DNA of 64,000 nt from Gemmatimonadota bacterium (GTDB taxonomy: Bacteria > Gemmatimonadota > Gemmatimonadetes > Gemmatimonadales > GWC2-71-9). Below, piece after piece: positions 34,423 to 61,450 of the stretch (its first letter is position 1; the number at the start of each line of letters is the position of its first letter). Below the pieces are notes generated by a model. It saw only the letters and a program-made list of their open reading frames with translations. It searched no databases and was not told the DNA's origin. Location: NCBI GenBank assembly GCA_003223415.1, contig QHUY01000015.1, positions 109,819 through 173,818 on the forward strand. Reading direction: 5' to 3'. Position numbers and translations under genes: made by a program.

Positions 34423-34509
34423 GCAATTGCGGATCGCGGATTGCGGATTGCGGAATGGACGCGTCAGCCTTCCATTCCGCATTCCGCATTCCGCATTCCG
34501 CATTGTGCT
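34423..34509. repeat. large imperfect hairpin built from tandem heptamers (GCGGATT x4 / ATTCCGC x4-5)
   Basis: Left arm gcaattgcggatcgcggattgcggattgcggaatgga, 11 nt loop, right arm tccattccgcattccgcattccgcattccgcattgtgc. Starts 7 nt after the DUF2231 stop. Confidence 0.85.
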
Positions 34510-37400: not shown

Positions 37401-38153
37401 ATGGACATCTTCCGCGAACCCCGCGTCACGCTCATCGCCCGACCGCAGTTCCTTGAGCCCGCGCACTTGCCGGTGCAGTGGCTGGGCGAGGGCTCCGACG
37501 GCGAGCGGCTCGCCGAGTACGCCGGCCGGCTGTGCTACATGAGCCAGCGCAACCCGATCCACCGCACGACGGCCGAGTACCTCGAGAACATCAAGAAGCA
37601 GGGCCACGGCTCGGTGCTGGAGCACTCCGTCTACGTGCTGCTGATCGAGGGGATCTCGCGCTCGTGCTCACACGAGCTGGTGCGGCACCGCGCGGGGTTC
37701 GGCTACTCCCAGATCTCGCAGCGCTACGTGGATGAATCGCACGCGGCGTTCGTGGTGCCGCCGGCGATTCTCGGCGACCCGGCGCTCGAGTCCGACTGGG
37801 AGCGCCAGGTAGCCGCCGCGCAGGCCGCCTACGTGCGCGCCGTGGAAGGCTTGATGGAGCGTTACGCCTGGATCGCCGACAAGGTGCACCGGCGCAAGCT
37901 GGCGCGCGAAGCGGCGCGCAGCGTGCTCCCCAACGCGACCGAGGTGAAGATCGTCGTCTCCGGCAACGCGCGCGCGTGGCGCACGATGCTCGAGCTGCGT
38001 TGCGGCGAGGGCGCGGAACTCGAGATCCGACGCATGGCCATCGCGGGGCTCCGTGTGCTGCAGCGCGAGGCGTCCGCGCTCTTCTCCGACTTCGAGATCT
38101 ACGTCGCCGACGACAAACTGGACGCCGCGCGCGTGACGTATCACAAAGTGTAG
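37401..38153 (+). CDS. thyX: FAD-dependent thymidylate synthase
   Basis: ThyX signature HELVRHRAGFGYSQISQRY, 250 aa. Confidence 0.9.
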   Translation: MDIFREPRVTLIARPQFLEPAHLPVQWLGEGSDGERLAEYAGRLCYMSQRNPIHRTTAEYLENIKKQGHGSVLEHSVYVLLIEGISRSCSHELVRHRAGFGYSQISQRYVDESHAAFVVPPAILGDPALESDWERQVAAAQAAYVRAVEGLMERYAWIADKVHRRKLAREAARSVLPNATEVKIVVSGNARAWRTMLELRCGEGAELEIRRMAIAGLRVLQREASALFSDFEIYVADDKLDAARVTYHKV

Positions 38154-38230
38154 CGTTGTCCGTTATCCGTTATCCGTTGTCCGTCACGGAAAGTGTTGTC
38201 GGATGACGGACGACGGAAAACGGAAAACGC
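38153..38230. repeat. large imperfect hairpin built from tandem TCCGTTA-type heptamers
   Basis: Left arm gcgttgtccgttatccgttatccgttgtccgtca, approx. 17 nt loop, right arm tgacggacgacggaaaacggaaaacgc. Starts at the thyX stop codon. Confidence 0.8.
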
Positions 38231-38240
38231 CTTTTCCCTA

Positions 38241-38269
38241 TTGCGTATTCATCTTGAATCTCATATTCT
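38241..38269 (+). promoter_or_regulatory. candidate sigma70-type promoter for the ATP-grasp/GNAT/KamA unit
   Basis: TTGCGT (38241-46), 17 nt spacer, TATTCT (38264-69), within the only AT-rich stretch of this intergenic region. Confidence 0.3.
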
Positions 38270-38297
38270 GATACCGGACAACACGTTGACGCTGGAC

Positions 38298-38325
38298 GGA
38301 CCGCCACGCAGAGCGGCCTTTTTTT
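38298..38325 (+). terminator. terminator-like GC hairpin plus T7 tract in the putative leader (possible attenuator)
   Basis: gg(a)ccgc-cacgcaga-gcggcc followed by ttttttt (38319-25), then AGGAGG (38328-33), with the ATG at 38349. Confidence 0.35.
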
Positions 38326-38348
38326 GTAGGAGGTCACCCGAGACCACG

Positions 38349-39401
38349 ATGCGCATCGGTCTCGCCTACAACGAGAAACCGGATCCCAACAGCACTCTCG
38401 ACGATCCTGCGAGGACCGGCGATGCCTTCGTCGAGTGGGATGAGCCCTCCACCATCGACGCCGTGGAGCTGGCTCTCAGTCTCTTCGGCAGCGTCATCCG
38501 ATTCGAAGCCGATTCCCTGTTCCCGCAAAAGCTCGCGCTCACCCGACCGCACCTCCTCTTCAACATGGCCGAAGGACTCCACGGCCCGAATCGCGAGGCG
38601 CACGTCCCCGCGATCTGCGAGTACCTGAACGTCCCCTACACCGCGAGCGACCCGCTCACCCTGTCGCTCACGTTGCACAAGGCTCGCGCCAAGGAGATCC
38701 TCGCTTGCCGTGGCGTGCCCACGGCGCGTTTCACGCTGGTGAGCGAGCTGAGCGAGCTCGCGCGGGTGCGGCTGCGTTACCCGCTGTTCGTGAAACCGGT
38801 GGCCGAAGGATCGGGGAAGGGGATATTTGCCAATAACTTATGCCACTCCCGGGCGGAGCTGCGCGACCGCGTGGCTTTCCTGTTGGAGACCTATCGGCAG
38901 CCGGTGCTGGCCGAAGCTTATTTGCCCGGCCCCGAGTTCACCGTCGCGATCCTCGGCAACGGCCCTGAAGCCCGCTGCCTGCCGATCGTGGGGTTGGACT
39001 TCTCGACGTTGCCGCTCGGGGCGCCGCCGGTCTACGGCTACGAGGCGAAGTGGATCTGGGACACCCCCGAGCACCAGCTCGACATCTTCGAGTGCCCCGC
39101 GCGGGCCCCCGAGCCCCTGTCCAGGGAGATCGAGCGCGTCGCGCTCGCGGCCTACCACGCCCTCGGTTGCCGCGATTGGTGTCGCGTGGACGTGCGCGTC
39201 GACGACGCCGGCGTCCCCAACGTCATGGAGCTGAACCCGCTCCCCGGCATCATCCCCGACACGAAGATGAACTCCTGCTTCCCGAAGGCGGCGCGCGCGG
39301 CCGGCTTCTCCTACGACGAGCTGATCCAGGAGGTCGTCCAAATCGCGTGGCAACGAATCACGGGCCGGCCGCTGCCGGTGCGGGCGGAGGCGACCGCGTG
39401 A
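38349..39401 (+). CDS. ATP-grasp amide ligase, D-Ala-D-Ala ligase-like (copy 1)
   Basis: Start MRIGLAYNEKPD. LFVKPVAEGSGKGI, and RVDVRVDDAGVPNVMELNPLPG (ATP-grasp Mg/ATP site, E-x-N). Confidence 0.8.
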   Translation: MRIGLAYNEKPDPNSTLDDPARTGDAFVEWDEPSTIDAVELALSLFGSVIRFEADSLFPQKLALTRPHLLFNMAEGLHGPNREAHVPAICEYLNVPYTASDPLTLSLTLHKARAKEILACRGVPTARFTLVSELSELARVRLRYPLFVKPVAEGSGKGIFANNLCHSRAELRDRVAFLLETYRQPVLAEAYLPGPEFTVAILGNGPEARCLPIVGLDFSTLPLGAPPVYGYEAKWIWDTPEHQLDIFECPARAPEPLSREIERVALAAYHALGCRDWCRVDVRVDDAGVPNVMELNPLPGIIPDTKMNSCFPKAARAAGFSYDELIQEVVQIAWQRITGRPLPVRAEATA

Positions 39402-40417
39402 GGGTCGTCGTCCTGTACGACCCGGGCGCCGATGACTGGTCCGCCGCTGACATCGCCGGGGTGATGAAGGCGGTCGACGACCTCGGCGTGATCTTCGGCG
39501 CGATGGGCCACCAGGTCCAGAGGGTGCCCGTCAAGCACGACATGCGGTGGCTGCAGACGTGCCGGCGCGCCGATCTGGTCTTCAATCTGTGCGAGGGGGT
39601 GCACGGCGTCTCGCAGTGGGAGGAGCACGTGGTTGGGACGCTGGAATTTGCCGGCATCCCCCACACCGGGTCCGGGCTCTGGACGGTGGCCGCGTGCCGG
39701 CGCAAAGCGATCGCGAACGCGATCCTCGAGAAGGCCGACCTGCCGATCCCGCTCTGGATCCTCGCGCACGGCAAGATCGCCGACGACTTCCCCCTACCCG
39801 CCATCATCAAGCCGGCCGCCGAGGACGCCAGCGCCGGCCTGGACCGGCAGTCCGTCGTGGCCGACCGCAAGATGCTGCGCACGCGCATCGCCGCGATGAC
39901 CGAGCAGTTCGACGAGGTGCTGGTCCAGCAGTACGTCCCGGGTCGCGAGTTCAACGTCGGATTCGTGGGGAGCCGCACCCTGCCGATCGCCGAAATCGAC
40001 TTCACGGGGATGCCCGAGGGCACCTGGCCGATCCTCACGTATGCCGCCAAATGGCACGTCGGGTCGGCCGAGGATCTGGGAAGCCGCCCCGTCTGCCCCG
40101 CGCAGATCTCCGAGCGTCTCGCCATCCGCCTCGCGCGCACCGCCGAAGCGGCGTGGCGGGTCATGCAAGGCAAGGGCTACGGACGGGTCGACCTGCGAGT
40201 GGACGACGCGGGACGCCCGTGGGTCCTCGAGGTCAACCCGAACCCGGACTTGACGGACGAGGCCGGGCTCTCGCGCATGGCGCAGGCGGCTGGATGGGAA
40301 TACCCGGAGCTGGTGCGGCGGATCGCCGAGGTGGCGCTTCGGGACGCTCAGGGAGCCAAGGCCGCGCGTGAGCTGCTCGCTCCGCCCCGTCGCTCGCGCT
40401 CAGCGCGCACGGTTTGA
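39398..40417 (+). CDS. ATP-grasp amide ligase, D-Ala-D-Ala ligase-like (copy 2)
   Basis: GTG start overlapping the upstream stop (GTGA). MRVVVLYDPG..., AIIKPAAEDASAGL and RVDLRVDDAGRPWVLEVNPNPD. Confidence 0.8.
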   Translation: MRVVVLYDPGADDWSAADIAGVMKAVDDLGVIFGAMGHQVQRVPVKHDMRWLQTCRRADLVFNLCEGVHGVSQWEEHVVGTLEFAGIPHTGSGLWTVAACRRKAIANAILEKADLPIPLWILAHGKIADDFPLPAIIKPAAEDASAGLDRQSVVADRKMLRTRIAAMTEQFDEVLVQQYVPGREFNVGFVGSRTLPIAEIDFTGMPEGTWPILTYAAKWHVGSAEDLGSRPVCPAQISERLAIRLARTAEAAWRVMQGKGYGRVDLRVDDAGRPWVLEVNPNPDLTDEAGLSRMAQAAGWEYPELVRRIAEVALRDAQGAKAARELLAPPRRSRSARTV

Positions 40418-40874
40418 AGCGCTGACCGCGGCCACCGGCGTGTTCCAGCCGGCCGAAGCCGCGATCGCGGTGGAGGTGCTGGACGAGGCCCTCGCCGGGG
40501 ACGACGACTACCGCTTCGTCGGGGCATACGAGGGCGGCGCCGACACCCTGGTCGGATTCGCCTGCTGGGGCCCGACGCCGGCCACCGTGGGGACCTGGGA
40601 CCTGTACTGGATCGCCGTCGACCCGGCCTGGCAGGGCAAGGGCGTCGGCAGCGACCTGCTCCACGAAGTGGAGCGGCGGCTCGCGGCGGACTGCGCCCGC
40701 CTGCTGGTAGTGGAGACCTCATCCCGCGCCGAGTACGCCCCCACGCGGGGGTTCTACGAGCGGCGCGGCTTCCGGCGGGCGGCGGTGCTGCCGGAGTACT
40801 ACGCGCCGGGTGACGACCTGGTGATTTATCTCAAGGATCTGACGCATGGAGTCCTGGCAACAACTGCTTCGTAA
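40368..40874 (+). CDS. GNAT family N-acetyltransferase
   Basis: YWIAVDPAWQGKGVGSDLL (acetyl-CoA binding Q/RxxGxG/A) and FYERRGFR. Overlaps its neighbours by 50 nt and 29 nt. Confidence 0.8.
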   Translation: MSCSLRPVARAQRARFEALTAATGVFQPAEAAIAVEVLDEALAGDDDYRFVGAYEGGADTLVGFACWGPTPATVGTWDLYWIAVDPAWQGKGVGSDLLHEVERRLAADCARLLVVETSSRAEYAPTRGFYERRGFRRAAVLPEYYAPGDDLVIYLKDLTHGVLATTAS

Positions 40875-41922
40875 GCGGAGCATCGCCTCGCTCGACGCGC
40901 TGGCAGCCAAGTTCGGGCCGGAGCACTTCCCCGAGATCGAACGGCTGCGGCAAGCCGCCGAGAACTTCGAGTTCCGGATCGCGCCGGCGATGGTCGACCT
41001 GATCGAGTCCCCGGAGGACCCGATCTGGCGGCAGTACGTGCCGACGGTCCAGGAGCTGGAGGTGCATGACGGGCTGGTGGACTCCCTGGCTGAGGACGCC
41101 AACTCGCCGGTGCCCAACATCACGCACCGCTACCCCGACCGCGCGCTCTTCCTCGTTTCTCCGGTGTGCGCGTCCTACTGCCGCTTTTGCACCCGGCGGC
41201 GCAAGGTGGGCGACCCCGAGAAGATCCCGCTGTCGCAGCTCGAGTCGGCGTTCCGCTACCTCGAGGAGCACACCGAGATCCGCGACGTGATCATGTCGGG
41301 CGGGGATCCGCTGCTGCTCTCCGACCGCCGGATCGACGAGCTCTGCCGGCGGCTGCGGTCGATCAAGCACCTGGAGATCCTTCGCATCGGCAGCCGCATC
41401 CCCTGTCACCTGCCTGAGCGCATCACGCCCGAGCTGTGCGACATCCTGAAGCGGTACCACCCGCTCTACATCAACACGCACTTCAACCACCCGCGGGAGC
41501 TGACGCCCGCCGCCGTGGAGGCGCTCGGCAGGCTGGCCGACGCGGGGATCCCGCTGGGCTGCCAGACGGTGCTCCTCAAGGGTGTGAACGACGACGTGGA
41601 AGTCATGAAGGAGCTGATGCAGAAGCTGCTCGCGGCCCGGGTGCGCCCCTACTACATCTACATGTGCGACCAAGTGGCCGGGGCGGAGCACTTCCGCACC
41701 ACCGTCGAGAAAGGCCTGGAGATCATCCAGGGGCTGCGGGGCTGGACGAGCGGCCTCGCGGTGCCGCACTTCGTGATCGACGCCCCGGGCGGCGGCGGGA
41801 AGATTCCGCTGCTGCCGGAGTACGTCGAGGCGATCTCCGACGACGAAGTGGTGCTCCGTAACTACGCGGGCAAGCGGTACGTGTACAAGCAGCCGGCAGC
41901 GGAGACAGTGCTGGTCGGGTAA
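40846..41922 (+). CDS. KamA-family radical SAM aminomutase (lysine 2,3-aminomutase-like, short form)
   Basis: CASYCRFCTRR radical-SAM cluster motif, SGGDPL, and YYIYMCDQVAGAEHFRT...VIDAPGGGGKIPL. At 358 aa it lacks the long C-terminal domain of clostridial KamA. Confidence 0.85.
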   Translation: MESWQQLLRKRSIASLDALAAKFGPEHFPEIERLRQAAENFEFRIAPAMVDLIESPEDPIWRQYVPTVQELEVHDGLVDSLAEDANSPVPNITHRYPDRALFLVSPVCASYCRFCTRRRKVGDPEKIPLSQLESAFRYLEEHTEIRDVIMSGGDPLLLSDRRIDELCRRLRSIKHLEILRIGSRIPCHLPERITPELCDILKRYHPLYINTHFNHPRELTPAAVEALGRLADAGIPLGCQTVLLKGVNDDVEVMKELMQKLLAARVRPYYIYMCDQVAGAEHFRTTVEKGLEIIQGLRGWTSGLAVPHFVIDAPGGGGKIPLLPEYVEAISDDEVVLRNYAGKRYVYKQPAAETVLVG

Positions 41923-41932
41923 GACCGGGAAG

Positions 41933-41987
41933 CGAGAATCGGGAAACGGGAACCGTGGAGCGGTCGGCTCCCGTTTCCCGTTTCTCG
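41933..41987. repeat. 19-bp stem hairpin built from tandem CGGGAAA units
   Basis: cgagaatcgggaaacggga (41933-51) pairs with tcccgtttcccgtttctcg (41969-87) with one T-T mismatch and a 17 nt loop. Starts 11 nt after the KamA stop. Confidence 0.85.
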
Positions 41988-42000
41988 ATAGGTTTCTGCA

Positions 42001-42993
42001 ATGCGCGCCATGCTCCTCGACGCTCCCGGGCGCCCCCTGCGCCTGGCCGACCTCCCCCGCCCCGAGCCCGGCCCCGGCCAAGTGCTGCTGTCGGTCCGTG
42101 CCTGCGGCGTCTGCCGGACCGACCTGCACGTCGCCGACGGCGACCTCCCCAACGCGAAGCTGCCCCTCATCCTCGGCCACGAGATCGTAGGAATGGTCGC
42201 GGCCGTCGGGGCGGGGGTCGAACGGGTGCGCGAGGGCGACCGGGTCGGCGTCCCCTGGCTCGGCTGGACCTGCGGTACCTGCGGCTACTGCCGCGCGGGG
42301 CGCGAGAACCTGTGCGAGCGCGCCCGGTTCACCGGTTATCAGCTCGACGGCGGCTACGCCGAGTACGCGGTGGCGGACGCGCGCTACGTCTTCTCGTTGC
42401 CGGGTGGCTATTCCGACCTGGAGGCGGCCCCGCTGCTGTGCGCCGGGCTGATCGGGTACCGCTCGCTCGTCGCCGCGGGCGACGGCGTGCGGCTCGGCAT
42501 TTACGGATTCGGGGCGGCCGCGCACATCGTCGCGCAGGTGGCCCGGCATCAGGGGCGGCGGGTGTTCGCGTTCACGCGGCCCGGCGATGCGGCGGCCCAG
42601 CGCTTCGCCCGGGACCTGGGCGCAGAGTGGTCGGGCAGCTCAGAGGCGCCGCCGCCCGAGCCGCTGGATGCGGCGATCCTCTTCGCCCCGGTGGGCGGCC
42701 TGGTGCCGGTGGCGCTGCGGGCGGTGGCCAGGGGCGGGACCGTTGTCTGCGCCGGGATCCACATGAGCGAGATCCCGGCGTTTCCCTACGAGATTCTCTG
42801 GGGCGAGCGGGTAGTGCGGTCGGTGGCGAACCTCACCAGGCGGGACGGTGAGGAGTTCCTGAAACTCGCTCCGGCCGTGCCGGTCCGGTCCACGGTCGAG
42901 CCGTTCCCGCTGGCCCGAGCGAACGAGGCGCTGGCGCGACTGCGCGAGGGCAAGCTTCGGGGAGCGGCAGTCCTGGCCCTGGCAGCGCCTTGA
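42001..42993 (+). CDS. zinc-dependent alcohol dehydrogenase (MDR family)
   Basis: ACGVCRTDLHVADGDLP, GHEIVG and the structural zinc motif CGTCGYCRAGRENLC. Confidence 0.85.
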   Translation: MRAMLLDAPGRPLRLADLPRPEPGPGQVLLSVRACGVCRTDLHVADGDLPNAKLPLILGHEIVGMVAAVGAGVERVREGDRVGVPWLGWTCGTCGYCRAGRENLCERARFTGYQLDGGYAEYAVADARYVFSLPGGYSDLEAAPLLCAGLIGYRSLVAAGDGVRLGIYGFGAAAHIVAQVARHQGRRVFAFTRPGDAAAQRFARDLGAEWSGSSEAPPPEPLDAAILFAPVGGLVPVALRAVARGGTVVCAGIHMSEIPAFPYEILWGERVVRSVANLTRRDGEEFLKLAPAVPVRSTVEPFPLARANEALARLREGKLRGAAVLALAAP

Positions 42994-47776: not shown

Positions 47777-48700
47777 ATGGCCAGCGCAGCTCCAGCGCCC
47801 ACGAAGTTCACCGTCGCCCTCGTGCAGATGAGCATGGTGGCCGACCCGCGCGCCAACCTCGACAAGGCCGCGCGGCGCGTGAAGGAGGCCGCCGCCGGCG
47901 GGGCGACCCTCGTCTGCCTCCCCGAACTGTTCCGCACGCTCTACATCGGCCAGCGCGAGGATCACGCGCTATTCGACCTGGCGGAAACCGTGCCGGGACC
48001 GACCACCGACGCCCTGGGGGCCGTGGCACGCCAGTTGGGGGTGGTGATCGTCGCGCCGTTATTCGAGCGCCGCGCCCCAGGCCTCTACCACAACACCGCG
48101 GCGGTGATCGACGCGAGCGGGCAGGTCGCCGGCATCTACCGCAAGATGCACATCCCGGACGACCCGGCGTACTACGAGAAGTTCTACTTCACCCCCGGCG
48201 ACCTCGGGTTCAAGGCCTTCGACACAGCCGTGGGCCGCGTCGGCACGCTCGTGTGCTGGGATCAGTGGTACCCGGAGGCGGCGCGCCTCACCGCGCTCCA
48301 GGGGGCAAGCATCCTCTGCTACCCGACGGCGATCGGCTGGCATCCGGCGGAGAAGGCGCAGTACGGGCCACAGCAGCTCGACGCGTGGCGCACCATCCAG
48401 CGCAGCCACGCGATCGCCAATGGCTGCTACGTGGCCGCGGTGAATCGCGTAGGATGGGAGCGGCTGGACGGCCAGGGAGCGGGGCGGGGAGCGGTAGCCG
48501 GCCTCGAGTTCTGGGGAAGCTCATTTGTCGCCGATCCGTTCGGCGTCGTCGTCGCGCAGGCGCCGCCCGACAAGGAAGCACTGCTCCTGGCGGAGATCGA
48601 TCCCGGCCGCATCGAGGACGTGCGTCGCAACTGGCCATTCCTGCGCGACCGCCGGGTGGACGCCTACGGCGGGATCGAGCGCCGCTTTCTCACCGACTAG
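47777..48700 (+). CDS. aguB: N-carbamoylputrescine amidase (nitrilase superfamily)
   Basis: LPELF, the catalytic LVCWDQWYPE and HIPDDPAYYEKFYFTPG. Adjacent to agmatine deiminase. Confidence 0.85.
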   Translation: MASAAPAPTKFTVALVQMSMVADPRANLDKAARRVKEAAAGGATLVCLPELFRTLYIGQREDHALFDLAETVPGPTTDALGAVARQLGVVIVAPLFERRAPGLYHNTAAVIDASGQVAGIYRKMHIPDDPAYYEKFYFTPGDLGFKAFDTAVGRVGTLVCWDQWYPEAARLTALQGASILCYPTAIGWHPAEKAQYGPQQLDAWRTIQRSHAIANGCYVAAVNRVGWERLDGQGAGRGAVAGLEFWGSSFVADPFGVVVAQAPPDKEALLLAEIDPGRIEDVRRNWPFLRDRRVDAYGGIERRFLTD

Positions 48701-48804
48701 TGCCGTTCCAACTATACGCGCCGAGTGCCGTGACGCTCTTGCATAGGACATTGCGACTTGACGAGCGATCTATTCCTAGTCCCGTCAAGTTGGAACGGCA
48801 CTAG
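48697..48804. repeat. 108-bp element with perfect 17-bp terminal inverted repeats and a lower-GC core (MITE-like or structured intercistronic RNA)
   Basis: ctagtgccgttccaact (48697-713) is the exact reverse complement of agttggaacggcactag (48788-804). Inner 8-bp inverted repeat acttgacg/cgtcaagt (48756-63 / 48783-90). Confidence 0.8.
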
Positions 48805-48810
48805 CTGGCG

Positions 48811-49881
48811 GTGACCCTCACGCCCGCCGCCCTCGGCTTCCGCATGCCGGCCGAGTGGGAGACTCACGAGGCCACCTGGGTAGCGTGGCCCCACAACGCC
48901 GGCGACTGGCCCGGCAAGCTCGCCCCCATCCCCTGGGTGTACGGAGAAATCGTCCGGAAGCTGACGGTCGACGGGCGAGAGGGCGTACGCGTGCTGGTCA
49001 ATTCAGCCGCTCACGAGCGGGCGGCGCGGCGCGTACTCGAGAAGGTCGGCGCCGAGCTCGGGCAGGTACACTTCCTGCGCTTTCCCACAGATCGCGGTTG
49101 GACGCGCGATTACGGCCCGCTGTTCATCAAGCGGAGCGGTCCGCCGGCCGAGGCGGCGATCGCCCGGTTCCACTTCAATGCCTGGGCCAAGTACCGCGAC
49201 TGGAAGAAGGACGACCGGATTCCCGAGCTCGCGGCCCGGCGGCTCAAGCTGCGGCTGTTCGAGCCCAAACGGCGAGGCAGAACGGTGATGCTCGAGGGCG
49301 GCAGCATCGACGTGAACGGCCGCGGAACCCTGCTCACCACCGAGGAGTGTCTGCTCGATCAGGCGGTCCAAGCCCGCAATCCCGGAATGAGCCGGACCGA
49401 CCTGGAGGGCGTCCTGCGCGACTATCTGGGCATCACCAACATGCTCTGGCTGGGCGGGGGCATCGCCGGTGACGACACCCATGGCCACGTGGACGACGTG
49501 TGCCGCTTCGTGGGGCCGGAGACGGTCGTGCTGTGTGAGGAGCCGAACCCGCGCGACGCCAACCACCGGCCGCTTGCCGAGAACCGCGAGCGGTTGCAGG
49601 GGATGCGGGCGGAAGACGGGTCGAACCTCGACGTGATCGCCTTACCGATGCCGGCGCCGCTCGTCTTCGACGGACAGCGGCTGCCCGCGAGCTACGCGAA
49701 TTTCTACGTCGCCAACGCGGCTGTGCTCGTCCCGACGTTCAACGATCCCAACGACCGGGTCGCGGTCGGCATTCTGTCGGAGGTCTTTGCCGACCGCCCC
49801 GTGGTCGGGATCCACGCTGTCGACCTCGTCTGGGGGCTCGGCACCATCCATTGCCTCACCCAGCAGGAGCCGGCGCGTTGA
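48811..49881 (+). CDS. aguA: agmatine deiminase
   Basis: MPAEWETHEATWVAWPH, GGSIDVNG.GTLLTTEECLL, DDTHGHVDD and a C-terminal IHCLTQQ (catalytic Cys). Confidence 0.85.
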   Translation: MTLTPAALGFRMPAEWETHEATWVAWPHNAGDWPGKLAPIPWVYGEIVRKLTVDGREGVRVLVNSAAHERAARRVLEKVGAELGQVHFLRFPTDRGWTRDYGPLFIKRSGPPAEAAIARFHFNAWAKYRDWKKDDRIPELAARRLKLRLFEPKRRGRTVMLEGGSIDVNGRGTLLTTEECLLDQAVQARNPGMSRTDLEGVLRDYLGITNMLWLGGGIAGDDTHGHVDDVCRFVGPETVVLCEEPNPRDANHRPLAENRERLQGMRAEDGSNLDVIALPMPAPLVFDGQRLPASYANFYVANAAVLVPTFNDPNDRVAVGILSEVFADRPVVGIHAVDLVWGLGTIHCLTQQEPAR

Positions 49882-58183: not shown

Positions 58184-61100
58184 TTGCGGATTCCAGAGCC
58201 CGCCAGTCGGCGGGATTTCCTCAGGGTGTCGGCCGGGGCCGGCGCGGGGACGGCCCTCGGCGGGCTCGTCGGTCTTGGCGCAACGCTGGCGCCAGCCACG
58301 GCGCGGGCGCAGGAGCTGCGGATCAAGGACGCCACGACGACGCCGAGCATTTGCCCCTTCTGCTCGGTCGGGTGTGCGACCCTGATCCACACGGTGAACG
58401 GCAAGATCGTGAACATCGAGGGCGATCCGCGCAGCCCGCACAACGAGGGCACGCTGTGCCCGAAAGGTGCCGCGATCTACCAGCTCCACCTGAATCCCAA
58501 CCGGGCCACCAAGGTGTTGCACCGCAAGCCGGGCGCCTCGGACTGGGAGGTGGTGGAGCTCGAATGGGCCATGGATCGCGTGGCCGAGCTCGTGAAGAAG
58601 ACCCGTGACGAGACGTTCATCGAGCGCCTCCCCAACGGCAAGCTCGTGAACATGACGTCCGCCCTCTTCGCGCTCGGCGGCGCGACCCTCGACAACGAGT
58701 TCAACCACGTGTGCCAGAAGTTCTGGCGCGGGCTCGGGGTCGTCGCCATCGAGAACCAGGCCAGGATATGACACAGCTCTAGCGTCCCCGGTCTGGGGAC
58801 ACGGCTGGGTCGTGGCGCGGCGACGACGTATCCGCGCAACCTGGAGCACACCGACTGCTTCGTCATCATGGGATCGAACATGGCGGAATGCCACCCGGTG
58901 GCGTTCCGCTGGCCCGTGAAGGCGAAGCTCAACGGCGCGAAACTCATCCACATCGATCCGCGGTTCACGCGGACCAGCGCGCTGGCGGACCTGCACGTCC
59001 CGATTCGCGCCGGGAGCGACATCGCGTTCCTCGGCGGGCTCATCAACTACGTGCTCCACAGCCCGCGCTGGAACACGGACCCCTTCTTCAAGGAGTACGT
59101 GGCCAACTACACCAACGCGGCCACGATCATCAACGCGGACTTCAAGGACACCGAGGATCAGGAGGGCGTGTTCTCGGGGCTGGTGCAGTTCACCGAGCCG
59201 CCGTTCTGGCCTTACAACGGCCTGCTCGGCCGCTACGACAACGCCTCGTGGCAGTACCAGCGGGGGCCGAAGGCCGCCGGTCCGGCCACGAAGGACCTCG
59301 TCGCCAGGCGCGCCGGCCCGCCGTTCGACGACCTCGTGCGCTCGCTCCGGCCGGGCCCCGCCGACAAGGACCCCACGCTGCAGCACCCACACTGCGTGCT
59401 CCAGCTCATCAAGCGGCACTACAGCCGCTACACGCCGGAGATGGTCGAGCGGGTGTGCGGCTCACCCAAGGAAAAATTCGTCCAGGTGGCCGAGGCGCTC
59501 CTGGCGAACTCGGGTCGAGACCGGACCAGCGCGTTCGCCTACGCGGTCGCCTGGACCCAGCACACCTACGGCGTACAGATCATCAGCTGCTGCGCGCTGC
59601 TGCAGCTCCTGCTCGGCAACTTCGGCCGTCCGGGCGGCGGCATCATGGCGCTCCGCGGCCACGCGGCGATCCAGGGCTCGACGGACGTCCCCACGCTCTA
59701 CCACAGCATCCACGGGTACATGAACGCCCCCTCGGCGCTGCGGCCGCACGAAACGCTGCGCGACTACCTCGCGGCCGAGACGACGCCGACCGGGTACTGG
59801 GGCAACTTCCCCAAGTTCATGGTCTCCTACCTCAAGTCCATGTACGGCGCCGCCGCGACGCCGGCGAACGACTTCGGCTACGACTGGCACCCCAAGATCC
59901 TCGGCGACCACTCCCACATGGCCATGCTGGCCGCCATGGCGGAGGGGAAGGTCAAGGGCATGGTGGTGGTGGGCCAGAACCCGGCCACGTCGCTCAACGG
60001 CACGGCGACGCGCCGCGCGCTACGCCAGCTCGAGTGGCTCGTGGTCAAGGACAACTGGCTCACCGAGACGGCGACGTACTGGTACCTGGCGCCCGAAGTG
60101 AAGAGCGGCCAGGTGCGGGTCGCAGACAACAAGACCGAAGTGTTCTTCTTCCCCTCCACGCAGATCGCCGAGTACGACGGCAGCTTCACGAACACCCAGC
60201 GCATGCTGCAGTGGCACTTCAAGGCGTCGGACGCGCCGGGCGACTGCCGGACCGACTCGTGGTTCTACCACAACCTGGCGAAGCGCCTGAAGAAGGCCTA
60301 CGCCGCCAGCACGGCTCCCCGCGATCAGGGGTGGCAGCGCCTGACCTGGGACTTCGACCCGGATCCCGGCGAGAAGCCGCTCTACCCGGGCGAGATCAGC
60401 GCGCTCAAGGTGCTGCGCGAGATCAACGGGTATCAGACCGCCGACCCGACCCAGCATCTCAAGGGCTTCGCCGAGCTCAAGGACGACGGCTCGACCACGT
60501 GCGCGTCCTGGATCTACTGCGGCTGCTATCCGGCCCATGACCAGAACCTCACGGCGCGCCGGGAGCCCGACCCCCCCGGCGTGCCCGGCGCGCACCTCAA
60601 GTGGGGCTGGGCGTGGCCCGCCAACCGCCGCGTCATGTACAACCGCGCCTCCGCCGACCCCCGCGGGCAACCCTGGAGCGAGCGCAAACGGTGGATCTGG
60701 TGGGATGCGACGTTCGTGAATCCGCCGGATCCCAAGACCGGCGTGGTGCCCCCCCGCGGCAAGTGGGTCGGCTACGACGTGCCGGATTTCGGCGCCACCA
60801 AGGCCCCGGACGCGAAGCCGAAGCCCGGGAGCATCGGCCTCGACGCCCTGTCGGGCACCGACGCCTTCATTATGAAGGGCGACGGCCGGGGCTGGCTGTT
60901 CGTGCCGGCGGGACTCGTGGACGGCCCGCTGCCGACGCACTACGAGCCCCACGAGTCGCCGGTGCAGAACCCGCTGTACCGGCAGCAGACCAGTCCCGTG
61001 CACAAGGTGTGGTCGAAGGGGAAGGACTGGAACCCGCTCGCCAGCGTCGGGGACCCGAAGTTCCCCTACGTCATCAGCACCTACCGGCTCACCGAGCACT

Positions 61101-61450
61101 ACCTGGCGGGCGCCATGAGCCGCTGGCTGCCGTGGCTCGCGGAGCTGCAGCCCGAGCTGTTCATCGAGATCGGCAAGGGCCTCGCGCAGGAGAAGGGGAT
61201 CAAGAACCTCGACTGGGTCGTGATCAGCAGCCCGCGCGGCCATATCCGCGCGAAGGCGCTGGTCACCGACCGCATCGGCGTGATGAACGTCGCGGGCAAG
61301 CACATCCACCACGTCGGCATGCCCTGGCACTGGGGCTGGATGGGCCTCTCCACGGGGGACGTCGTCAACGACCTCACCTCCTGGGTGGGTGATCCCAACG
61401 TGTCGATCCACGAAGGCAAGGCGTTCGTCTGCAACGTGGAGAAGGCCTGA
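58184..61450 (+). CDS. fdnG: periplasmic formate dehydrogenase catalytic subunit (Mo/W-bisPGD), selenocysteine-containing
   Basis: TTG start with GGGGAGGG upstream and a Tat signal (SRRDFLR). 4Fe-4S motif CPFCSVGCATL...C. Track ORFs 58184..58771 and 58868..61450 are in the same frame and are joined by TGA 58769-71 in the context QARI-U-HSSSV, matching the FdnG/FdhF ARV-U-HG Sec site. Confidence 0.9.
58784..58806 (+). promoter_or_regulatory. SECIS-like hairpin downstream of the fdnG UGA
   Basis: Perfect stem gtcccc/ggggac (58784-89 / 58795-800) with apical loop GGUCU. It begins 13 nt after the UGA, and the UGA is followed by CAC as in E. coli fdhF. Confidence 0.6.

Follow-up and report, generated by a model that had tools for sequence, protein, structure and literature searches.

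To our knowledge beta-lysine has few fates – the osmolyte pathway of AblA and AblB, modification of EF-P, the fermentation of lysine, and a few antibiotics. The AblA/AblB pathway of methanogens and some bacteria yields N-epsilon-acetyl-beta-lysine as an osmolyte, and in the EpmB/EpmA system a short KamA-family aminomutase is paired with a ligase that uses ATP to form a beta-lysyl amide. Here, we describe a four-gene unit in a 64,000-nucleotide stretch of a Gemmatimonadota genome (GenBank assembly GCA_003223415.1, contig QHUY01000015.1, positions 109,819 to 173,818 of the forward strand; this whole stretch is hereafter the window). Exact protein identity assigns the window to a Gemmatimonadetes metagenome-assembled genome. 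The unit encodes two ATP-grasp ligases with the fold of D-alanine–D-alanine ligase (Ddl), referred to as AG1 and AG2, a GNAT N-acetyltransferase, and a short KamA-type 2,3-aminomutase of the radical S-adenosylmethionine (SAM) and pyridoxal phosphate (PLP) class. The four genes probably form one operon for small-molecule biosynthesis, and the linkage of their functions in fusions and rearranged gene sets of other lineages is the evidence on which this mainly stands.

The unit resembles AblA/AblB in placing a KamA-family aminomutase beside a GNAT, and its KamA scores best against the AblA model and keeps the same pair of aspartates. However, this KamA falls below the AblA cut-off and lacks about 50 C-terminal residues, the GNAT is not of the AblB type, and two ATP-grasp ligases are integral to the unit and are sometimes fused to its other members. 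Similarly, EpmB is a short KamA-family enzyme without the C-terminal domain that works with a ligase, whereas the KamA described here lies far below the EpmB cut-off, its ligases are of the ATP-grasp rather than the LysRS-like type, no linkage to efp was found, and the unit also occurs in an archaeon. The ligases share with Ddl and VanA the full three-domain fold and all of the ATP/Mg2+ catalytic residues, but are only 24-30% identical to them, and differ in a Tyr216 to Trp replacement, a five-residue insertion in the omega-loop, and the N-terminal substrate motif; they also constitute two conserved paralogous subfamilies without cell-wall genes around them.

Two further systems share part of the logic. 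In blasticidin S synthesis (BlsG/BlsI) a 2,3-aminomutase makes a beta-amino acid that an ATP-grasp ligase attaches, so that a KamA-family aminomutase is again paired with an amide ligase of the ATP-grasp class; that system belongs to an actinomycete antibiotic cluster, whereas the unit lies among housekeeping genes, has no nucleoside genes, is conserved across phyla, and has a KamA scoring 328 bits against an arginine 2,3-aminomutase cut-off of 600. In the NAGGN pathway the bifunctional GNAT–ATP-grasp protein Ngg makes the osmolyte N-acetylglutaminylglutamine, and the coupling of a GNAT to an ATP-grasp ligase for a small N-acetylated peptide has its counterpart in an AG2-GNAT fusion described below. 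The ligase subfamily is a different one, an AsnO-type amidotransferase is missing, and a beta-amino acid would serve as building block. Neither the enzyme families nor the overall logic, in which an aminomutase supplies an ATP-grasp ligase and a GNAT caps a small amide, is new, and what appears to be new is the gene combination, its breadth, and two specificities in the Ddl fold. No description of the unit was found by full-text literature search, although an earlier, purely computational mention may exist.

Linkage of the four genes

A genome scan, limited to the best 80 species-representative genomes ranked by similarity, returned Gemmatimonadota throughout and gave 64 loci with adequate flanking sequence. 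All four genes are present in the same order at 57 of these, and at three others a divergent KamA-family protein of 446 residues replaces the orthologue. The upstream genes, coding for an FAD oxidase and ThyX, are syntenic too, and co-occurrence within the phylum alone therefore proves little. The gene downstream of kamA varies from locus to locus, and may be gltB, ADH, CN_hydrolase, or another.

The breadth of the unit outside the phylum was assessed by searching representatives of 50%-identity clusters exhaustively with AG1, together with contig look-ups. The search returned many proteins of 650-790 residues, which Pfam resolves either into tandem ligase-ligase proteins (650-730 residues) or into KamA-ligase proteins with the domains Radical_SAM, LAM_C, and Dala_Dala_lig_C (P0136, P0172, and P0237). 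The KamA-AG1 fusions span 702-784 residues, and an AG2-GNAT fusion has 518. Both kinds of fusion stand together in a metagenomic locus (L088), and a KamA-AG1 fusion is accompanied by separate AG2 and GNAT genes in the metagenome-assembled genome (MAG) GCA_936418525.1 (L089). In a Nitrososphaerales archaeon (L093; named through a cluster member, on a contig that also encodes eIF2-alpha) AG2 is on the minus strand and is followed by KamA-AG1-GNAT. The Desulfovibrio mangrovi chromosome (L097) has the order KamA-AG-AG-GNAT between a sigma54 activator and a GNAT-like/HDAC protein, and a Planctomycetota MAG (L098) has KamA-AG-AG-HDAC-GNAT after a permease-Usp gene. A metagenome scan seeded with the L088 ligase gave 80 loci at 42-71% identity, 43 of them flanked by 4 kb or more on either side, and 33 of these 43 have the complete set of four functions.

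These fusions and rearranged quartets outside Gemmatimonadota are the decisive evidence of linkage. The first-pass annotation of this DNA had raised the question of synteny in unrelated genomes, and the quartet is indeed found there, in varied order and with natural fusions, in bacteria and in an archaeon.

Several related arrangements were also seen. A search of plasmids by tblastn returned rhizobial ATP-grasp genes of 32-37% identity outside any such cassette, plus a variant from Thioflavicoccus only. The latter, on plasmid pTHIMO01 of Thioflavicoccus mobilis (L095; NC_019941.1, 6.7-12.2 kb), contains genes for a diaminobutyrate transaminase, SbnA, an SbnB-like cyclodeaminase, one Ddl-like ligase, and KamA, so that three suppliers of diamino acids are grouped with a single ligase. 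At L090 (8001-11432) a Peptidase_S58 gene (DmpA/beta-aminopeptidase family) comes after a 724-residue tandem fusion of two Ddl-like ligases, and neither KamA nor GNAT is present. In the Gemmatimonadales loci L052, L053, and L054 (approximately 10.6-12.0 kb), the 446-residue KamA-family protein is 28% identical and carries CDVPFVGKRW instead of IDAPGGGGK. Loci L056 and L063 have a typical Gemmatimonadota-like cassette with thyX synteny and yet are labelled as Solirubrobacterales and Bacillota MAGs, which is probably a result of mis-binning.

Enzyme families of the four proteins

The sole confident Pfam match of either ligase is Dala_Dala_lig_C (PF07478), with E values of 9e-31 for AG1 and 3.5e-25 for AG2. 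Against the general Ddl model of NCBIfam (NF002378) they score 158.7 and 141.2 bits, respectively, below its cut-off of 243. An AlphaFold (AF2) model of AG1 (pLDDT 92.9) was compared with the PDB using Foldseek, and the best match is a Ddl covering all three domains (TM 0.75/0.84, 24% identity), with all of the top 50 matches being Ddl or VanA. AG1 and AG2 are 34% identical to each other, and the signatures RVDVRVDD..MELNPLPG and RVDLRVDD..LEVNPNPD reported for them in the first-pass annotation are present in their translations.

AG1 and AG2 orthologues of five lineages were aligned with Escherichia coli DdlB. The residues for ATP, Mg2+, and acyl-phosphate (K97, K144, E187, K215, R255, D257, and N272 in DdlB numbering) are invariant, and position 270 is Glu or Asp. 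Tyr216 of the Glu15-Ser150-Tyr216 triad is Trp in both ligases of the window and in most orthologues, with the AG1-type ligases of D. mangrovi and the Planctomycetota MAG deviating in the Tyr216 loop. The omega-loop carries an insertion relative to Ddl, and the sites matching S150 and S281, as well as the N-terminal region around E15 (with an AE[FW]D motif), are unlike Ddl and also unlike between the AG1 and AG2 families. Both ligases thus look catalytically competent, with what the residue pattern suggests are two new and distinct specificities.

Pairwise comparison of orthologues separates two conserved subfamilies. The AG1 type has the motifs YSYEAKWxWD (YGYEAKWIWD in the window) and NPLPG..NSCFP and is the partner of KamA, by fusion or by adjacency; the AG1 of the window is the orthologue of the ligase half in the KamA-ligase fusions. 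The AG2 type has NPNPD and is the one fused to GNAT in L088. A bona fide Ddl was considered for either ligase and rejected, given the scores below Ddl cut-offs, the Tyr216 to Trp change, the lack of a cell-wall gene context, and the presence of the cassette in a Nitrososphaerales archaeon; the ligases are co-conserved with their partners across phyla and domains. The D-alanine--D-alanine ligase annotation that both routinely carry in databases is almost certainly wrong, and thousands of entries are affected.

The GNAT scores 53.1 bits against PF13508 (cut-off 27) and 52.5 bits against PF00583 (cut-off 20.7), which places it in the family, and it has the acetyl-CoA motif QGKGVG (Q/RxxGxG). Its match to PDB entry 2R7H (E 4.5e-34, approximately 50% identity) is to a structural-genomics entry labelled 'putative D-alanine N-acetyltransferase' from an uncharacterised family, which we take to be from Desulfovibrio (Oleidesulfovibrio) alaskensis G20. 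GNATs of the 2R7H family occupy the cassettes of Desulfovibrio, Planctomycetota, and Nitrososphaerales. Among NCBIfam models at E ≤ 0.01 there is no match to AblB, the best being RimI at 43.7 bits with a cut-off of 86.4, and none of the NCBIfam models is specific to AG1, AG2, or the GNAT.

KamA belongs to its family by TIGR00238 (295.6 bits, cut-off 199.2). It scores 444.3 bits against the AblA/KamA equivalog TIGR03820, below the cut-off of 525.4 and with the match ending at model position 363 of 417, 392 bits against glutamate 2,3-aminomutase, and 238.5 bits against EpmB (TIGR03821, cut-off 369.3). Alignment with the lysine 2,3-aminomutase structure 2A5H (E 6e-113) places CASYCRFC on C125/C129/C132, and shows conservation of the CTRRR segment and of the PLP lysine K337 (GGGGK); it stops at residue 369 of 416, and it is this C-terminal part that is absent. 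C268 of 2A5H, which we take to be one zinc ligand, is Asp. The CxxxCxxC motif and the two aspartates noted in the first-pass annotation were confirmed in the translation and in this alignment, the aspartates of MCDQV and VIDAPGGGGK falling on D293 and D330. These two residues reportedly hold the lysine epsilon-ammonium in lysine 2,3-aminomutase, and are said to be replaced in glutamate 2,3-aminomutase. The KamAs of other cassettes that were examined behave alike, with AblA as the best model (420-465 bits, below cut-off), 226-262 bits against EpmB, and both aspartates kept in all. The predicted reaction of KamA is from L-lysine to beta-lysine.

An identity as EpmB, in which KamA would sit beside efp, was also rejected. 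The enzyme is nearest to AblA and well under the EpmB cut-off, and tblastn with an E. coli EF-P query found no efp in the window or in approximately 180 related loci, epmA not having been searched for.

Gene layout, leader and flanking hairpins

All four open reading frames lie on the plus strand as described in the first-pass annotation, with coupled or overlapping boundaries (Table 1). AG1 and AG2 share a GTGA start/stop, AG2 and GNAT overlap by 50 nt, and GNAT and KamA by 29 nt, as seen from the open reading frame list and the raw sequence; gene callers place identical overlaps in relatives. The early GNAT start is backed by an alignment of orthologues, in which there are conserved residues ahead of the next available start codon. 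Very long antisense reading frames (for example of 572 residues) opposite kamA and its neighbours, such as 40831-42549 on the minus strand, are the usual artefact of high-GC DNA, and the GC3 pattern favours the plus-strand genes.

Table 1. Coordinates of the genes and candidate signals in the window.
Feature	Position	Strand	Description	Basis
Large upstream hairpin	38161..38229	+	Inverted repeat of CCGTTAT-type 7-nt repeats, directly 3' of thyX (stop at 38153)	
Promoter-like boxes	38241..38269	+	-35-like TTGCGT (38241-38246), 17-nt spacer, -10-like TATTCT (38264-38269)	
Small leader hairpin	38298..38325	+	GG-A-CCGC[loop]GCGG-CC (hairpin itself 38298-38318), then run of 7 T	Covariation
Shine-Dalgarno	38326-38333	+	GTAGGAGG, downstream of leader hairpin and T run	
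AG1	38349-39401	+	Ddl-fold ATP-grasp amide ligase, 350 aa	Pfam PF07478
AG2	39398-40417	+	Second Ddl-fold ATP-grasp ligase, paralogue of AG1, 339 aa	Pfam PF07478
GNAT	40368-40874	+	N-acetyltransferase, 168 aa	Pfam Acetyltransf_7/1/10
KamA	40846-41922	+	Short radical-SAM/PLP 2,3-aminomutase, 358 aa	Radical_SAM + LAM_C
Downstream hairpin	41933..41987	+	CGGGAAA-type 7-nt repeats, 11 nt past kamA stop codon	
CN_hydrolase gene	47777-48700	+	N-carbamoylputrescine-amidase-like	Pfam E 4e-68
PAD_porph gene	48811-49881	+	Agmatine-deiminase-like	Pfam E 1e-108

The unit has a 118-nt leader that is conserved across the order and contains, in this order, an A-tract, -35-like and -10-like boxes separated by a 17-nt spacer, 30-40 variable nt, a bulged hairpin, six to eight T, GTAGGAGG, and the start codon. 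The boxes upstream of AG1 in approximately 70 Gemmatimonadota loci read CTATTGCGC / TATTCT, or CTATTGTGC / TACTTTAG, with the A-tract ahead of the -35-like box in relatives. A strict consensus scan for promoters and terminators called neither the boxes nor the leader hairpin in the window; conservation suggests that the boxes at 38241-38269 act as a promoter. In an alignment of 37 Gemmatimonadota leaders (window 38241-38333), 87% of cells of the leader hairpin are paired, compared with 28-71% in slid controls, and two-sided changes occur in 21 cells versus 8.9 in shuffles (0/500). The hairpin is terminator-like, and its position between promoter-like boxes and Shine-Dalgarno suggests that it may be an attenuator. 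One sub-clade (L025, L026, L029, L030, L032, L033, L035, and L037) is without the hairpin, and its -10-like box stands 7-8 nt ahead of the ATG, so that the mRNA would be leaderless. The promoter-like and leader region of its own that the first-pass annotation had assigned to the unit is thereby borne out and more sharply defined.

The two large flanking hairpins, which had been read as bracketing an insulated and autonomous module, are both real by folding (38153-38230, -45.7 kcal/mol, z -6.9; 41933-41987, with 23-nt arms that are 91% complementary, -37.8 kcal/mol, z -4.2). They are not special insulators, since they belong to a class found throughout the window, in which the arms are tandem 7-nt repeats (GCGGATT, CCGTTAT, CGGGAAA, GGAACGC, GTGAAAG, and others) always just 3' of a gene; a third example, at 34428-34502, follows a DUF2231 gene. 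Relatives have equivalent hairpins at matching sites (upstream of AG1 in L012, L014, L047, L056, and others) with unrelated heptamers, such that among Gemmatimonadales genomes the position is conserved and the sequence is not. Rfam returned only spurious miRNA-like matches on the hairpins and no riboswitch. The first hairpin probably terminates the upstream unit and the second probably the four genes, and they are best read as terminators delimiting the unit rather than as insulators of a mobile module.

The idea of a mobile or insulated island was rejected, as the GC content of the unit (0.63-0.71) is normal for the region, its position after thyX is constant in Gemmatimonadota, and the hairpins are generic. 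Its neighbours in the window – thyX, ADH, and gltB – are housekeeping surroundings, and no HDAC, Peptidase_S58, or EF-P gene was found in the window.

Elsewhere in the window, an in-frame TGA at 58769-58771, with the surroundings ARI-TGA-HSSSVPGLG, interrupts a molybdopterin oxidoreductase gene (58184-61450, plus strand; Fe4S4, Molybdopterin, and Molydop_binding domains). Approximately 12 nt downstream of this TGA there is a candidate SECIS-like stem (GTCCCC..GGGGAC), and an NrfD-like gene follows the oxidoreductase. The product is probably a selenocysteine-containing subunit of the formate-dehydrogenase type.

Candidate product and alternatives

In the pathway that we infer – its substrates, order of steps, product, physiological role, and attenuation – KamA would turn L-lysine into beta-lysine by radical-SAM/PLP chemistry. 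AG1 would form an acyl-phosphate with ATP and then the first amide bond, in which beta-lysine is the candidate partner because KamA and AG1 are fused in other lineages. AG2 would make the second amide bond, and the GNAT, fused to AG2 in one lineage, would N-acetylate a remaining free amine with acetyl-CoA. An HDAC-type amidohydrolase might strip the acetyl group again in lineages having one, as turnover or deprotection. Expression would be from the unit's own promoter, past the terminator-like leader hairpin as a possible attenuator.

The product is probably an N-acetylated di- or tri-amide that contains beta-lysine, either a short peptide or a beta-lysyl-polyamine conjugate. This agrees with the proposal of the first-pass annotation that the unit may build an acetylated, beta-lysine-containing di- or tri-peptide-like metabolite, which is supported while the product itself stays a prediction; none of the evidence that it had named as contrary was found, and neither NCBIfam nor the literature assigns the quartet to a characterised pathway. 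The role is most likely that of a stress-protective cationic or zwitterionic solute, or of a polyamine analogue, and is the weakest part of the proposal. Circumstances that fit a stress solute or polyamine analogue, short of proof, are the soil and sediment lineages, the Na+/H+ exchangers with TrkA_N at L088, the AA_permease-Usp gene at L098, and the precedents of AblAB and NAGGN. A broader suggestion, that N-acetylated beta-lysyl polyamine (putrescine or homospermidine) conjugates or short beta-lysyl peptides form a new class of metabolites acting as a widespread stress-protective polycation or osmolyte, is a tentative one and more apt to fail than to hold.

Several observations weigh against an acetylated beta-lysine amide, for which all substrates are assigned by homology. 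There is no KamA nearby at four of the 64 Gemmatimonadota loci, and GNAT and/or KamA are missing nearby from 10 of the 43 well-flanked metagenomic loci. The fused GNAT of one lineage is of another GNAT subfamily, and the role of the Asp pair as determinant of lysine specificity is taken from the literature. In addition, loci with homospermidine genes and no KamA have an AG1 that is 57-64% identical to KamA-linked AG1 with the same active-site motifs, so that AG1 may lack specificity for beta-lysine.

The last of these leads to an alternative that is unlikely but the best survivor among its rivals, in which AG1, AG2, and GNAT aminoacylate and acetylate putrescine or homospermidine and beta-lysine is the acyl group or one interchangeable amine; the product would by the same token be an acyl- or aminoacyl-polyamine, and not a peptide. 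In six well-flanked metagenomic loci without KamA (L110, L128, L135, L139, L141, and L161), genes for a deoxyhypusine-synthase-like (DHS-like) protein (PF01916), an arginase-family protein, and a pyruvoyl arginine decarboxylase (ArgDC) are directly upstream of AG1-AG2, and a class I methyltransferase gene follows the ligase pair, with GNAT between in some. At L099, AG1-AG2-GNAT is followed by DHS-like and ArgDC genes. ArgDC, agmatinase, and a DHS homologue make up an alternative route to sym-homospermidine in Anabaena. Agmatine deiminase and N-carbamoylputrescine amidase genes are directly after kamA at L006/L007 and approximately 1 kb downstream at L151, and the corresponding pair in the window (47777-49881), 6 kb downstream of the cassette, is a possible supplier of putrescine. 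HDAC-type enzymes, a family that includes acetylpolyamine amidohydrolases, adjoin the KamA cassette at five loci (L097, L098, L149, L156, and L164), and the two contexts have almost the same AG1 protein. Most KamA-type loci, however, have no polyamine gene within 7 kb, the adjacency in Gemmatimonadota could be plain synteny (CN_hydrolase is right after kamA at only two of 57 loci), and the KamA-AG1 fusions favour beta-lysine itself as the ligase substrate. 

Over the loci with and without KamA, the invariant core is AG1-AG2-GNAT, with the amine supplied by KamA, by polyamine genes, or with both needed. The tandem ligase fusion beside a Peptidase_S58 gene at L090 and the Thioflavicoccus plasmid cluster are two further variants in line with this.

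Two other readings are improbable, the second by a little more than the first. The many tandem AG-AG fusions could point to a pseudo-dimer of AG1 and AG2 that polymerises beta-lysine, as short epsilon-linked chains like the beta-lysine tail of streptothricin, or makes a cyanophycin-like reserve, with the GNAT capping it and peptidases or deacetylases turning it over. The Peptidase_S58 gene after one tandem fusion and the Thioflavicoccus plasmid, which joins KamA and one ligase to diaminobutyrate and diaminopropionate genes, would suit this, but no conserved primer, carrier, or export gene accompanies the cassette, the S58 and HDAC genes are absent from the window, and the existence of two ligase subfamilies, distinct and each conserved on its own, speaks for two different bonds rather than repetition of one. 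Beta-lysine or a peptide derived from it could instead be ligated to a carboxylate or lysine of a protein, as by RimK or by EpmA/EpmB on EF-P. KamA-family enzymes do provide beta-lysine for EF-P, ATP-grasp enzymes such as RimK do act on proteins, and DHS-like genes, of the family that modifies IF5A, are beside AG1-AG2 at some loci. Modification of a protein fits poorly with the lack of efp in the window and in approximately 180 related loci, a KamA far below the EpmB cut-off, a fold that over the whole length, the closing omega-loop region included, is nearest to the small-molecule enzyme Ddl, the lack of any conserved small substrate reading frame among those seen, and the occurrence of the cassette in archaea, which use hypusine on aIF5A.

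That an AblAB-like KamA and GNAT making N-epsilon-acetyl-beta-lysine merely neighbour two unrelated cell-wall Ddl paralogues, as the AblA score, the adjacent GNAT, and the D-alanine--D-alanine ligase names in the source annotations might suggest, is close to refuted and very improbable given the KamA-ligase and ligase-GNAT fusions, the linkage of four functions across domains despite rearrangement, ligases below Ddl cut-offs with Trp at position 216, an archaeal host without murein, and a GNAT with no AblB match.

Conservation of the cassette from Gemmatimonadota to Thaumarchaeota points to a metabolite that has so far escaped recognition and is apparently common. If this is an acetylated beta-lysyl conjugate, it would represent a third general role of beta-lysine beside the AblAB osmolyte and EF-P modification, and two new substrate specificities in the Ddl fold, spread over soil Gemmatimonadota, sulfate reducers, Planctomycetota, and ammonia-oxidising archaea. 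Cultured carriers, among them Desulfovibrio mangrovi, D. psychrotolerans, and presumably Oleidesulfovibrio alaskensis G20 as the source strain of 2R7H, make the question a testable one. The repeated association of the cassette with polyamine genes suggests that beta-amino-acid and polyamine metabolism are connected through it.

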